Shown in pieces: positions 10,670-53,680 of a stretch of 64,000 nucleotides of DNA. A program made the position numbers and the translations under genes. The DNA comes from Lama guanicoe (taxonomy: Eukaryota): positions 5,444,439 through 5,508,438 of the forward strand of contig MU053561.1 in the NCBI GenBank assembly GCA_013239625.1. The letters are read 5' to 3'. The notes beneath the pieces were generated by a model. That model saw nothing but the letters and a program-made list of their open reading frames with translations, searched no databases and had not been told where the DNA came from. Each line of letters opens with the position of its first letter. The first letter of the stretch is position 1.

Positions 10670-10723
10670 ATTATAACAATGTGGTCAAATGTTTATAATG
10701 ATTATAACAATGTGGTCAAATGT
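10670..10723. repeat. Perfect 23-bp direct duplication (period 31)
   Basis: attataacaatgtggtcaaatgt at 10670-10692 and 10701-10723. Confidence 0.9.
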
Positions 10724-13109: not shown

Positions 13110-13320
13110 CATAGCATTAATGGGTTTAAGCAAAGTAACAAGATTAGGCTGGCATATTAAAAAGGTAACTTTGTGTGGAGAATAAAAGGTAACTGTGTGG
13201 AGAATAAACAAGACCAAGAACAGCTATGGGGCATGCAATGAAAATATGAGGGCCATTGTCCAGGTAAAAGATGATTCAGATCAGTAGCAGCAGTAGAGAA
13301 GTAGACAGATTTGAGATTCA
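13110..13320 (-). mobile_element. L2 fragment containing a local tandem duplication
   Basis: gggtttaagcaaag...tgtgtggagaata...gtccaggtaaaagatga...gatttgaga. The unit aaaaggtaact(t)tgtgtggagaat is duplicated at ~13158-13208. Confidence 0.6.
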
Positions 13321-21485: not shown

Positions 21486-21598
21486 GAAAAATAGAGAATT
21501 CTTTAGTAAGCACAATATTAACTAATCCTAGCAATATGTACTTCAACAGGACACATAATTCACAAAAAGACATGACTCATTCTATGTTCTCTGCCATT

Positions 21599-22960
21599 CA
21601 GTCTCCTCAGCAAGTGGTGTTGGGAAAACTGGCCACATATAAATTGATGCACTTAGAACACTCTCTCACACCACACACAAAAATAAACTCAAAATGGCTT
21701 AAAGACTTCAACATTAGACAAGATACTATAAACCACCTAGAAGAAAACATAGGCAAAACATTTTCTGACATAAATCTTTGCAATGTTCTCCTAGGGCAGT
21801 CTACCCAGGCAGTAGAAATAAAAGCAAAAATAAACAAATGTGACCTATTAAATTTTATAAGATTTTGCACAGCAAAGGAAACCAGAGACAAAACAAAAAG
21901 ACAACCTACAGACTGGGAGAAAACATTTGCAAATGATGCAACTGACAAAGACTTAACCTTCAGAATATATAAACAGCTCATAAAACTTAGTAACAAAAAA
22001 ACAAATAACACAATCCAAAAATGGGCAGAAGACCTAAACAAGCAATTCTCTGATGGAGACATACAAATGGCCAGTAGGCACATGAAAAGATGCTCAATAT
22101 CGCTAATTATCAGAGAAATGAAAATCAAAACTACCATGCAGTATCACTTCACACCAGTCAGAATGGCCATCATTAAAAAGTCCACAAACGATAAATGCTG
22201 GAGAGGGTGCAGAGAAAAGGGAACCCTCCTACATTGTTGGTGGGAATGCAGTTTGGTGCAGCCATTATGGAAAACAGCATGGAGATTCCTCAAAAAAACT
22301 AAAAATAGACTTACCATATGATCCAGCAATTTCACTTCTGGGCATATATCCAGAGAAAACTAATTCGAAAAGATACATTCACCCCAATGTTCATAACAGC
22401 ACTATATACAATAGCCAAGACATGGAAACAACCTAAATGTCCATCGACAGATGACTGGATAAAGAAGCTGTGGTGTATTTATACAATGGAATACTACTCA
22501 GCCATAAAAAATAAAATAATGCCATTTGCAGCAACCTGATAGACCTGGAGATCATCATTCTAAATGCAGTAAGCCAGAAAGAGAAAGAAAAATACCATAT
22601 GATATCATTCATATGTGGAATCTAAAAAAAAAAAAAGACACAAATGAACTTATTTACAAAACAGAAACAGACTCACAGACATAGAAAACAAACTTATGGT
22701 TTCCAGTGGGGAGAGGAGGTGAGGAGGGATAAATTGGGAGTTCAAGCTTTGAAGATACTAACTACTATATATAAAAATAGATAAACAAGTTTCTTCTGTA
22801 TAGCACAGGGAACTATATTCAGTATCTTGTAGAAACCTATAATGAAAATAAAAAGAAGATAAAAACAAATACATGTATGTATATGTATGACTGAAACCTT
22901 ATGCTGTACACCCGAAACTGACACATTGTAAACTGACTATACGTCAACTAAAATATAATA
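21599..22960 (+). mobile_element. Relatively young 5'-truncated L1 (~1.36 kb; ORF2 C-terminus plus 3' UTR)
   Basis: ORF 21536-22321 gives [18 protein letters not shown]...[19 protein letters not shown] (CCHC region). After frameshifts it continues as FTPMFITALYTIAKTWKQPKCPSTDDWIKKLW. The 3' UTR ends gtaaactgactatacgtcaactaaaa. Confidence 0.97.
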
Positions 22961-24817: not shown

Positions 24818-24910
24818 TTTTTTTTTTTTTAATGGAGATACTGGGGATTGAACCCATGAACTCATGCATGCTAAGCATGTACTCTACCACTGAGCTATAC
24901 CTTCCCACCC
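24818..24910 (-). mobile_element. Camelid tRNA-Ala-derived SINE (Vic-1-like)
   Basis: Minus strand reads gggaaggtatagctcagtggtagagtacatgcttagcatgcatgagttcatgggttcaatccccagtatctccatt-A13, with pol III A and B boxes. Confidence 0.9.
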
Positions 24911-26150: not shown

Positions 26151-26275
26151 CTGGGGAGGTGGGGAATAACTCAGTGGTAGAGCGCATGCTTAGCATACAT
26201 GAGGTCCTGGGTTCAATCCCCAGGGCCTCCATTAAAAAAAAAAAAGAAAATAGACTTTGTAAAAAAGAAAGCAAA
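26151..26275 (+). mobile_element. Camelid tRNA-Ala-derived SINE (Vic-1-like) with target-site duplication
   Basis: ggggaataactcagtggtagagcgcatgcttagcatacatgaggtcctgggttcaatccccagggcctccatt plus an A-rich tail. TSD aagggaaatgac (26139-26150) / aagagaaatgac (26276-26287). Confidence 0.92.
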
Positions 26276-29460: not shown

Positions 29461-31661
29461 AGGTCGCTTTTCGAGGTCTTATATGAACAACTTTAATTAA
29501 TTTGGAAAATTTAACTGCTTCTTAATGTTAAGAAGTTCTTGACTAATTTTAGAAAAAACATTTGAGAGGAGGTAGTAAAATTTATTTCCTAGTCTTCATT
29601 CTCTCATTCTTTTTAATCAAAACTCTACATCAAGCCAGGCCACTACCACTTTACAGATTAGATTCCATTGCAACGAATGTCATGTCACAAAAACGGAACA
29701 GTCCCGAACATTACTCATGTCAGTCAAATATTACAACAAAATGATGAACATCAGTCGCCTTTGGGAGTTTGTTGCAATGAGATCAGAATTTTTTTTTTTT
29801 TTTGCCATTTCTACTGAAGAAATGGTTTTCTCTTCCTCATACTTTCATTTTGCCACTGCAAAAGTCTACAGAGGAGAAACTTTTATTCAGAGATCCAAAT
29901 CAACCTCTGTCTGAAAAGCTCTGTTGTATCCTCATCAGATTTACTTATAAAGACATATAGTATATGCCTTCAAATACCAGGCAGAGGTGGGCACTCAGGG
30001 CACTGACTCAGAACTACGAGGTGTCAGCATGTATCACAGTATGGAAATTCCTCTCTTACTTGTCCTTCAAATTTTACATTTTAGCCTTATTCTTTCATAT
30101 CCTGGAGGTAAATTCTATGTTTGGAATCTGGATCTGTGGCTTAAGAGAGCTACAAGGGCACAAATGCTTTGCCTTATCATGAAGCAGGCCACTCTGAAGA
30201 GGACAAAACAAAAAGAGCGGGTTGTAAAAATCTCATACGTTGTGCCCCCCAAATCATATTTTTATTCCTCTTCCTTACGCGTGTAACAAACGCAACTTTC
30301 TGAAGGGAAAGAATAAAAAGAACACAGGGCTGTGGATGGCTTAGAGGAGAGTATTTCTCCCCATCATTTTCAAACTGAACACTCAAAGCAGTTAGCTCCG
30401 TGTTTGCCACAGTAATAGAGTTAATTATGCTCTCTTCAAGGCCTGCAATTTACAATTAAACCCAAATACAGATCTTAACATTTCATTTTTAAGTCTTTTA
30501 GTTTTCAGAATGGAGGATTAATATGCTTAAACATCTGCAAGACATACTATGACTCTGATTTAGAAATCTAACACTTGACATATATAAAAAATTTTTTTCT
30601 TTATGATGATTCCCTTAGTCCCACAAATACATATGAAGCATTTTTAACCATTCTGTCTCACCCTAAGAATCATTATTTTATTGATTTTAAATGTGGGATT
30701 TTTTTTTGTTGCCATTTAAGTATTTTCAAATTAAATTACTGTCTTTTCCCCCTTAAACTACTAAATGACCTCCAAATTTAAAGAGAAATAAGATGACAAA
30801 AGGGGAAACTTTTCCATTTTTTAAATTTATCACCCATACAAAACAAGAGAAGACCAGGAAAATCTGAGCCAGGAATTTCAGCCTCTTCTACAGTTATGTG
30901 AGGGGTTTGGGAGACAGTGTAATGGAGGCAATAATTGGCAATGATTCTATCACAATTATAAATCATGCTTTCCCCATTCACATCAACTCTCCCATTACAT
31001 TTCAAATGATTGAATCTTCTTCCATGCTTGTAATTCATTAATTCTAACTTTCATGTGAGAAAGTAGTTTATACTTCACTATAATTATGCTACTTTTACAG
31101 TTCCAATTTGCTGCCAGCTGAGAGCAATGCTCCTCAAAGGTGACTTTTTCCTCAATTATTCCAACTTCCATTGCGTCAAAACCATTTAAGTTAAAGTCCA
31201 CTTTCAGCTTCATTAAGTATCCTTTCTTATTAACTTTCATAAAACTACTATCTAGCCACTCATAACCACGGTAAGAAATCTTTCCATTTTTTGTTTTTGG
31301 ATTCCTGATTCAATCTTTTAACAGTATAAAGAAACTGAGGCACAGAGAAGATGAAGGACCTGCTCAAGTTTGCCTAGAAAGTTAACACATGACTTTCTTA
31401 CGAACTTATTTTCATGCCACTTCCTGTTACTACCTAAAACAATTTAAAATTCAAATAAAAGGTTTTAGAGGTCTTAAACTAAAAGAAAATATTTAGAGCA
31501 AAACAACTACAACAAAACAAGTAAAACTATCCTGACTTCAGGTAAGAGAACATCCCTATAGTTTAGCAAAAACTGGGGAGATAGTAAGTGGGAATGGTAT
31601 TTTTGCTATTAAAATACTCTAAAATCTCAGACATATATTCATTTAAACACATACTGAGTAT

Positions 31662-32595
31662 ACCAAAAAAACAAACAACCCAATCAAAAAATGGGCAGAG
31701 GACCTAAACAGACATTTCTCCAAAGAAGACATATAGATGGCCCACAGGCACATGAAAAGATATGCAAAATTGCTAATTACCGGAAAAATGCAAATCAAAA
31801 CTACACTGAGGTATCATCTCACACTGGCCAGAATGGCCATCATTAAAAAGTCCACAAATAATAAATGTTGGAGAGGGTGTGGAGAAAAGGGAACCCTCCT
31901 ACACTGTTGGTGGGACTATAAATTGGTGCAGCCACTATGGAAAACAGTATGGAGGCTCCTCAAAAAATTAAAAATAGATCTACCATATGATCTAGCAATC
32001 CCACTCCTGGGCATATATCTGGAAAAGACAAAAACTCTAACTGGAAAAGATACACACACCCCAATGTTCCCAGCAGCACTATTTACAATAGCCAAGAGAT
32101 GGAAGCAACTTAAGTGTCCATCGACAGATGAACCATACAAAGAAATGTGATACACACACGCACACACACACACACACACAGGAATATTACTCAGCCATAA
32201 AAAATGAAATAATGCCATTTGCAGCAATATGGATGGACCTAGAGATTATCACACTAAGGAAAGTAAGAAGAAAGACAAATATTGTATGATAGCACTTATT
32301 CGTAGGATCTAAAAAACAGTACAAATGAACTTATTTACAAAACAGAAATAGACTCACAGACATAGAAAACAAAATTACGATTACCAAAGCGGAATGTGGG
32401 AGGAAGGGATAAAAAGGGATTAACAGATACACACTACCATATAAAACAAACAACAAGGATTTACTCTATAGCACAGGGAACTATATTCAATATCATGTAA
32501 TAACCTATAATAGAAAAGAATAAAAAAAGAATATATATAATATGTATAATATATATAACTGAATCATTTTGCTGTACATCTGAAACATAATATAG
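31662..32595 (+). mobile_element. 5'-truncated L1 (~0.93 kb; ORF2 C-terminus plus 3' UTR), laurasiatherian/camelid type
   Basis: ORF 31737-32150 reads [12 protein letters not shown]...[18 protein letters not shown]...[13 protein letters not shown]...[11 protein letters not shown]. The 3' UTR resembles that of 22600-22960. Confidence 0.96.
32152..32180. repeat. (CA)n microsatellite inside L1
   Basis: acacacacgcacacacacacacacacaca. Confidence 0.9.
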
Positions 32596-52221: not shown

Positions 52222-52565
52222 AGGGGAGAGAGAAATGAATGGGAAGAACACAGAGTATTTTTAAGGCAGTGAAAATACTCTGTATGATACTATAATGGTT
52301 GATACGTGTCATTATACATTTGTCCAAACCCATACAACACACAACACCAAAAGTGAACCCTAATGTAAACTATGGACTTTGGGTGATAATGATGTATTAA
52401 TGTAGGTTCATCAGTTGTAACAAGTGTACAAGTGTAATAAGTGTAATATGTGGAGAATGTTGACAACAGGGGGGGCTACATATGTGTGGGAGCAGAGGGC
52501 TCTGTACTACCCCCTCAATTTTGCTATGAACATAAAATTGGTCTAACAAAAGAGTATTTTTTAAA
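52222..52565 (+). mobile_element. L1MC1/2-like 3' end
   Basis: ggcagtgaaaatactctgtatgatactataatgg...gtgaaccctaatgtaaactatggactttgggtgataatgatg...ctcaattttgctatgaac. Confidence 0.9.
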
Positions 52566-52789
52566 AACTGAGCTTGAGTTTGCTAGGTTTAAAGTCTAAT
52601 TAAGATTTCTAATAAAGATTTTTCATTATTTCTGTATACTTACTTCTACAAATTATTTCTAAGATAACTAAAAAATATAAAAATTGGAAAGTAAAGAAAG
52701 AGTGCAATGGATTAAAATGGCAAATGATGATGACTATTTTTCCTTGTTATACAGAGAGTTATTATGACCCAAAGAGAGAGTGTTCTCAA

Positions 52790-53680
52790 TCTACATCTTC
52801 AAATCCAACCTCAAGACTTGCCCAATTCGGCAAATAGCATCACTATTACTTAATTACTGAGACCAAACAATTAGGATTGTTTTTGACTCCATTCCAACCT
52901 ATCAAGTTCTACTGCCTTTATGAGACTGACGCTCTACCTACCGCGCTAACGAGGCACCTAAGTTCTACTGCCTTTAATCAAAAAAACAAACTGTGAATTT
53001 CCACTACCACCACCTTGAACTAAGCCATCACCATCTTCCCACTAGACTACACAAACGGCATCTTACCTAGTCTTCCTGCTTCCATTTTTGTTTTTCTCTC
53101 GTCTGTCTTCAAAACAGATTATAAACACTTCACTTTGAAAAACCCTCAAAAGGTTTCTACCATTTTAAAAAATCCAGACTCCTTCCTGTGGCCTACTATC
53201 CTCTATGTGATCTGTCCCCTGACTACTTCTACAACCTTCTCTCTTATTCCTCTTCCCTCGTTGGCTCACTGTTCTTCAGCCACAGTGGTCTCCTTTCTGT
53301 CCTTGAACATCACATCCCATTACCTTGTTCTTCAGGGGAGTGCTCTTAGGGCAGGACTTCTCATGGTTTCCTCCTCTTCATCCTTCAGGTCTCAATCCAG
53401 ATATCACCTCTTCAGTCAAAACTTCTCTGACTCTAGCTCAACAGCTCTCACAATACCCCATGCCTTCACAATTGACCAATACCTACTTATCTTCTCCATA
53501 TTTATTGATTTTTGTCTTACTGATAATTAAAATTAATTATGTATATGTCTATTATCTGTCTACCCCCTCTACAATCTTCTTAAGAGTAGAAACCACTATC
53601 TAGTTCACCACTGCATTTCTACCACCAAGAACAGAGCCTAGGCACTTTGTAGGTACTCAGTAAAGGCTGGCCATTTAATC
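52790..53680 (+). mobile_element. L2 3' region to terminus (host of the tRNA-half insertion)
   Basis: ccactaccaccaccttgaactaagccatcaccatc, atccttcaggtctcaat, gttcaccactgcatttctaccaccaagaacagagcctaggcactttgtaggtactcagtaaa. Confidence 0.85.
52918..52955 (-). pseudogene. Tailless retropseudogene of the 5' half of elongator tRNA-Met(CAT)
   Basis: Minus strand reads GCCTCGTTAGCGCGGTAGGTAGAGCGTCAGTCTCATAA, matching 36/38 nt of the recalled mammalian tRNA-Met 5' half and ending in the anticodon loop. Flanked by the perfect direct repeat aagttctactgccttta (52904-52920, 52960-52976). Confidence 0.93.

Follow-up and report, generated by a model that had tools for sequence, protein, structure and literature searches.

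A tailless tRNA-Met retropseudogene in a MAGI-family gene of the guanaco, and the leaders of its sibling copies

Tailless retropseudogenes of tRNA were reportedly described by Schmitz and colleagues in 2004. In the accessible text of Noll 2015 (PMC5322556), members of this class are defined as 5'-complete RNA copies at least 30 nt long and more than 69% identical to the RNA, with up to 20 nt of precursor sequence in the case of tRNA. Their 3' side lacks 10 nt or more, the end falling within a loop or another single-stranded region, and they have no oligo(A) tail. They are also flanked by target site duplications (TSDs) of 8–35 nt with at least 70% identity, and lie at TT/WAAAA targets complementary to the terminal 2–18 nt of the RNA. 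Both processed and unprocessed tRNAs are named there as templates, with reference to Schmitz 2004, and supplementary file 2 of that work holds 60 human MetCAT copies, many of them 35–45 nt long.

Three further systems are close to this class. The snRNA pseudogenes made by L1, as far as presented in the available text of Doucet 2015 (PMC4476161), involve recruitment of a nuclear RNA, truncation at single-stranded purine-rich segments and microhomology at the junction, where a T that precedes the purines is assigned to the TSD; retropseudogenes of pre-tRNA are cited in the same paper. The tRNA/LINE-1 chimeras of a 2025 preprint (10.1101/2025.02.02.635956, accessible part) contain half-length tRNA pieces (nt 1–37) inserted by L1 with TSDs, but these pieces are fused to L1 sequence, are mostly antisense and are read as mature tRNA halves. 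Finally, simple tRNA-derived SINEs, for instance the vic-1 family of camels in the SINEBase entry consulted (PMC3531059), are mobilised by L1 as full-length elements with box A, box B and an A-tail.

The locus considered here lies in a window of 64,000 nt, that is, the whole stretch of Lama guanicoe DNA that was analysed. Judged by its letters, the insert is an ordinary tailless retropseudogene and belongs to a class already described in mammals. It shares with the human tRNA copies the complete 5' part, the truncation in a loop, the missing A-tail, the type of target and the short pairing between RNA and target, and differs from them in genome and locus; moreover, the source of each copy is assigned here through its leader. 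Unlike the snRNA pseudogenes, it would derive from a pre-tRNA. Unlike the chimeras, it stands alone and bears a pre-tRNA leader. It differs from vic-1-type SINEs, being derived from a tRNA-Met gene, ending before box B and having no tail.

Anatomy and identity of the insert

The borders of the insert are set by an exact direct repeat of 17 nt at 52904–52920 and 52960–52976, with 39 nt between the copies, as the initial annotation of this DNA had described. For 64 kb of sequence, the chance expectation of two identical 17-mers no more than 100 nt apart is about 0.0016. When the entire window was searched for exact repeats of at least 13 nt within 700 nt, three that are not of low complexity came to light, and this repeat is the only one of them whose copies are separated by more than 8 nt. 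Two short exact tandem-like duplications are also present in the window, one at 10670–10723 (unit of 23 nt, gap of 8 nt) and one at 13172–13208 (unit of 15 nt, gap of 7 nt).

On the minus strand, the insert consists of AGGT and tRNA-Met(CAT) nt 1–35, and it runs into a TAA that is common to the downstream repeat. The upstream (5') TSD copy (52960..52976) starts at the T of a TT|AAAG site, which agrees with the earlier notion of a target resembling L1 endonuclease sites. The 4-nt pre-tRNA 5' leader AGGT (52956..52959) follows and equals positions −4 to −1 of the source gene, L009. Next comes the tRNA part (52921..52955), which covers the 5' strand of the acceptor, the D arm with box A, the 5' anticodon stem and the loop up to A35. 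The downstream (3') TSD copy (52904..52920) is identical to the upstream one, and its first three bases, TAA (52918..52920), coincide with tRNA nt 36–38 and form the putative priming site. The target may be written AT|TAAAG or TT|AAAG, with a microhomology of 3 nt, and is one base off the consensus A-run. Poly(A) is absent, and the copy stops at nt 38 of 73, so it is indeed tailless and ends in the anticodon loop, as first proposed.

The TSD measures 17 nt only when the T common to tRNA U36 is included, and the canonical nick at TT|AAAG gives 16 nt. Since such a T is counted into the TSD in the snRNA pseudogenes (Doucet 2015, PMC4476161, available text), the true duplication is probably either 16 or 17 nt long.

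When the insert was used as a query against its own genome (2.05 Gb), at least 27 matches were obtained. One locus, listed as both L005 and L009, is an intact tRNA-Met(CAT) gene from which the insert differs by two substitutions, A14G (52942, minus strand) and C23A (52933, minus strand). The earlier reading as tRNA-Met(CAT) nt 1–38 with two substitutions is thereby borne out. The identification depends on this match within the genome because neither ARAGORN nor Rfam calls the fragment as a tRNA; the weak hits of these programs to SraB, HIV-1 SL4, nuoG and others (E 0.3–7) were rejected as chance. The source gene has four CpGs in nt 1–35. The insert keeps three of them, so the earlier statement that the CpGs are retained holds for these three and fails for the fourth, lost through C23A, while A14G creates a new one. 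None of the CpGs in the insert has been deaminated.

Source genes and leaders in the tRNA-Met family

The insert is not singular, for this genome contains at least 62 tRNA-Met copies of its kind. The heads of three isodecoders, searched as patterns with up to three mismatches allowed, gave at least 42, 45 and 28 matches, respectively, and no match with the reversed controls. Every fragment locus listed by these searches and by those with the insert and with the L009 gene as queries was taken, apart from L082, which was dropped as a duplicate of L077. The result was at least 62 distinct 5' fragments, the insert included, all of which stop in the anticodon loop. A TSD of at least 11 nt flanks 60 of the 62 copies, and in 46 the TSD is perfect. 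Because the searches were limited to about three mismatches, old copies are missing from this family. The two loci counted as one, L077 (C1724:718245) and L082 (C16505, 206 nt), show the same copy with the same flanks twice, which is probably an assembly duplicate or a haplotig.

The family also bears on the question of whether the insert is a retrocopy at all. The element is short and goes uncalled by the tRNA and RNA-family programs, as might be the case if a fragment had been captured during a duplication of DNA, if the tRNA match were accidental or if the assembly were faulty. However, the repeat alone has the very low chance expectation given above, the tRNA pattern matches the genome at least 42 times and its reversed control never, and the same architecture recurs at 61 other loci at unrelated sites. 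An origin without retrocopying is thus left with next to no probability.

A search with the L009 gene as a query gave at least 41 matches, including 11 full-length loci that represent 10 distinct intact genes (L019 was dropped as the same gene as L017, and L001–L008 as repeats of loci among L009–L032). The tRNA-Met genes found are 73 nt long and intronless. L009 is located on contig C55226, near 20227288–20227360 on the minus strand; its 5' flank ends in AGGT and a T-run follows the gene. The leaders of the other genes are AGTT in L010, ATCT in L011, L015, L017 and L018, ACCT in L012, AGT in L014 and AAC in L016. Among the 10 distinct intact genes found, L009 alone has either the body type of the insert or an AGGT leader. 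The initial annotation had proposed that AGGT is a pre-tRNA leader that names the source locus, and this proposal has been substantiated. The shared flank, together with the matching body, argues that the template was a pre-tRNA and not a mature tRNA half. No gene with the bases of the insert at A14G and C23A was found in the own-genome searches.

L009 is the source of 29 of the 62 copies, which indicates uneven use of the genes, in counts that may be biased by the design of the searches. L013, which has an A at neither −4 nor −3 and is alone in this among the intact genes found, has zero copies. Calls of tRNA-Leu(AAG), tRNA-Lys(TTT) and tRNA-Ala(GGC) occur within 1 kb of the tRNA-Met genes L010, L011 and L016, and contigs C5820 and C3348 bear tRNA gene clusters.

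The leaders of the copies follow their source genes. In 56 of the 62 copies, a leader of 3–4 nt is exact to a gene with the best-matching body, where ties in the body match permit up to four genes per copy and the rule for the leader (from an A at −4, otherwise at −3) was fixed after the data had been seen. Shuffling of the leaders in 10,000 trials gave a mean of 22.6 exact matches and a maximum of 36 (p < 1e-4). AGGT is exact in 25 of the 29 copies of the L009 type and in none of the 33 copies of other body types; in the first set, the comparison was 25/29 against 0/10 (Fisher p 1.6e-6). The six misses are L036, L052, L053, L054, L056 and L061. Two of these, L054 (C7048:1406865) and L056 (C8876:19884515), are of the L009 type and have the leader AGAT, which they may owe to separate mutations, or to a source allele that is older or missing from the assembly. 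A leader longer than 4 nt was considered and rejected: T at −5 is present in 9 of the 29 L009-type copies, which is about the chance level. Since the match to the flank of the source stops at A(−4), this A probably marks the start of transcription by Pol III.

RNase P removes the leader from pre-tRNA, and mature tRNA, as well as its halves, begins at nt 1. The presence of leaders in the copies therefore implies a template that had not been trimmed by RNase P. This is the point at which the view of the insert as a record of a germline tRNA half, also put forward at the outset, loses its footing. The length and the end point of the insert do resemble 5' halves of 30–40 nt as presented in the accessible part of the 2025 preprint (10.1101/2025.02.02.635956), and a mature half of the angiogenin-type stress response or a sperm fragment could have served as a template. 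However, the insert starts with the −4 to −1 bases of its source gene rather than at nt 1, and 59 of the 62 copies carry the exact leader of some tRNA-Met gene. Only L052 (C4216:20874083) is plainly without one; its TSD abuts tRNA nt 2, and the copy is either 5'-truncated or derived from mature tRNA. A mature half as the template of the insert is thus very improbable.

A broader idea can be formulated from these leaders, a pattern seen for one tRNA in one genome; that it is true, general and new at the same time is rather doubtful. L1 might take up tRNA-Met nearly always in the nascent state, with the leader still attached, and the tailless copies would then preserve, gene by gene, a fossil record of germline Pol III starts (A at −4 or −3) and of the genes active there. 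If such a rule were general, it would speak against interpreting half-length tRNA insertions as copies of mature halves, and it could be mined in any mammalian genome. The pattern may already have been reported, because copies of pre-tRNA are said to have been described by Schmitz in 2004, in a work that may already contain an analysis of leaders. No camelid report and no study linking leaders to sources were found in the open-access literature, and the accessible text of Noll 2015 (PMC5322556) has no breakdown of leaders by source. In practical terms, the family is more useful than the single copy, for it is through the leaders that copies are traced to single tRNA genes and start sites are located.

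Template and route of insertion

The 3' junctions are as uniform as the leaders. In the first 39 copies, T36 is included in 38, A37 in all 39, A38 in 29 and U39 in only 7, so that the ends cluster at nt 36–38. A TSD that begins at nt 36 is present in 29 copies; it is preceded by a T in 26 of them, and TT|TAAA is the commonest target among these 29 (13 copies).

These features are best explained by target-primed reverse transcription by L1, begun in the anticodon loop of a nuclear pre-tRNA-Met and performed in trans in the germ line, a reading to which we assign a probability of roughly 85%. To judge from the target, the ORF2 protein of L1 would have nicked the bottom strand at TT|AAAG in an intron of a MAGI-family gene. 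The freed T-rich 3' end could then have paired with A37–A38, or with U36–A38, in the open loop of a nuclear pre-tRNA-Met, which by its leader and body would be a transcript of L009 untrimmed by RNase P. Reverse transcription would have run to the first base of the RNA, A(−4), and would thus have yielded AGGT with nt 1–35 or 1–36. Eventually, a staggered second nick would account for the TSD of 16–17 nt that is seen as the product. The source gene, the leader, the end point in the loop, the microhomology, the L1-type target and the TSD are directly visible, and the nicking, pairing and copying steps would connect them.

The same ends might also be produced if the pre-tRNA had already been cut in the anticodon loop, and the resulting leader-bearing 5' half had been primed at its own 3' end; internal priming and a pre-cut RNA of this kind are not directly told apart by sequence. 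The sharp clustering of 3' ends at nt 36–38 and the scarcity of pairing beyond the loop fit such a template, and the accessible part of the 2025 preprint (10.1101/2025.02.02.635956) makes the case that the half-length tRNA parts of tRNA/L1 chimeras may have been cut first and reverse-transcribed afterwards. However, the clustering is equally well explained by A37–A38, an A-run in an open loop that is able to pair with the nicked T-tract. In the available text of Noll 2015 (PMC5322556), neither truncated copies with oligo(A) nor truncated cDNAs corresponding to them were found for 5S and U2, and internal priming was concluded from these two RNAs, tRNA not being tested there. A small excess of similarity between the TSDs and the tRNA 3' of the loop (mean local score 3.82 against 3.55, p 0.032 in 500 shuffles) also leans towards a longer template. 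Splicing can yield tRNA fragments that consist of the leader and the first exon; this route does not apply here because the tRNA-Met genes are intronless. A pre-cut template is therefore regarded as quite unlikely, and priming within the loop of an uncut pre-tRNA is preferred.

Three copies have TSDs that look like tRNA-Met 3' of the loop, as if the pairing had run past it, namely L040 (C1866:12429751), L035 (C2354:1101651) and L055 (C8461:493710), with uncorrected p values of 0.006, 0.054 and 0.021. The first of these is the best single similarity among the 39 copies compared, and none is significant after correction.

The use of unprocessed pre-tRNA as a template for tRNA-Met bears on a disagreement in the literature, in which internal priming (Noll 2015) stands against pre-cleaved halves (the 2025 preprint).

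Age and genomic setting

The insert had been considered young, and possibly polymorphic, on account of its perfect TSDs and its CpGs. Taken alone, both are compatible with a young copy, but neither sets it apart from its relatives. Perfect TSDs are the rule in the family, and they persist in 14 of the 20 copies that have at least two substitutions; likewise, zero CpG deamination is found in 7 of the 28 siblings from the same source. Nor do the substitutions mark the insert as young. In 35 nt, the 29 copies of the L009 type show no difference in 4 cases, one in 7, two in 6 (the insert among them) and three in 12, so that 11 of the 28 siblings have fewer substitutions than the insert.

For the age estimate, the set of 29 copies of the L009 type was used minus the insert itself, and only TSDs of at least 11 nt contributed to the TSD mismatch rates. 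A mean sibling is expected to have 2.1 changes over the same sites, where the insert has 2, which gives a relative age of 0.95 (95% interval 0.12–3.4). At 2.2e-9 substitutions per site per year, equal to 1.1e-8 per 5-year generation as given in the part of PMC7305198 that was available, the non-CpG divergence of the family (0.018) corresponds to about 8 My, and the age of the insert would be about 12 My (95% interval about 1.5–45 My), a value that depends on two substitutions and assumes that both arose after insertion. Within this breadth, the insert would be of middle age among its detectable siblings, that is, roughly several million years old.

A very recent or polymorphic insert is nevertheless conceivable if the two differences are errors of reverse transcription or come from a variant allele of the source. 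The identical TSD copies and the undeaminated CpGs would suit such an event, as would the lower end of the interval, 0.12 of the sibling mean. On the other hand, neither A14G nor C23A occurs among the 28 siblings that stem from L009, the one other copy with C23A, L070, comes from a different gene, and the own-genome searches gave no gene with these bases. In the tRNA, A14G alters a conserved base of the D loop, and C23A affects a pair of the D stem. Four siblings are free of errors, so copying is usually faithful, and a 39-nt copy aged 1 My would have two or more substitutions with a probability of 0.003. Very recent insertion is therefore unlikely, and middle age remains the favoured estimate.

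Public data fit either state of the site. Of 24 public runs listed, 20, with five organism labels and from seven studies, hold 0.89–0.95 of 141 words sampled from 52300–53600, shares that cannot resolve an insertion of 56 nt or separate a filled from an empty site. The insert contributes about 5% of the words in this interval (about 69 of 1271), and the shares are also lowered by variants private to a run or by words missing from the index. Human MAGI3 presumably lies at about 114 Mb on chromosome 1, and we take it that no MetCAT row of the human table falls inside it. In its accessible form, that table (Noll 2015), which covers only cases with clear TSDs, has four MetCAT rows on chromosome 1, at 17.5, 111.5, 147.0 and 190.6 Mb, and no string 'MAGI3'.

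The host gene can be recognised from an exon of 117 nt with AG/GT ends at 2148–2032 on the minus strand; read in the sense direction, this exon follows the insert at a distance of about 50.8 kb. The only match of its peptide in PDB is MAGI2 residues 97–136 (E 5.8e-18), which identifies a MAGI-family exon. Since this exon is on the minus strand, the insert is in the sense orientation of the gene, in line with what had been annotated. The paralog is presumably MAGI3, with the exon as its exon 2 and the insert in intron 1. The insert adds two AG|GT motifs to the sense strand, at 52959 and 52939, and neither is a full consensus donor as judged by eye. As box A is present and box B is not, the insert is not expected to act as a Pol III gene. 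Most likely it is neutral, with no function indicated.

This single insertion is consequently of little importance, as a neutral-looking intronic copy, one of at least 62, from a class already catalogued in human. If it proves to be specific to a species or tribe, it would provide a clean presence/absence marker for camelid phylogeny.

Other retroelements are present in the same window. Two A-tailed elements resembling tRNA-Ala lie in opposite orientation about 1.3 kb apart, at 24833–24904 (minus strand) and 26160–26231 (plus strand), with Rfam tRNA scores of 51.6 and 32.4 bits, and ARAGORN calls the first a tRNA-Ala AGC; both are presumably simple SINEs of the vic-1 type. Open frames at about 21488–22681 on the plus strand resemble what we take to be the C-terminal part of the L1 ORF2 protein and the L1 3' end, and similar L1-ORF2-like fragments are found near 31650–32290.
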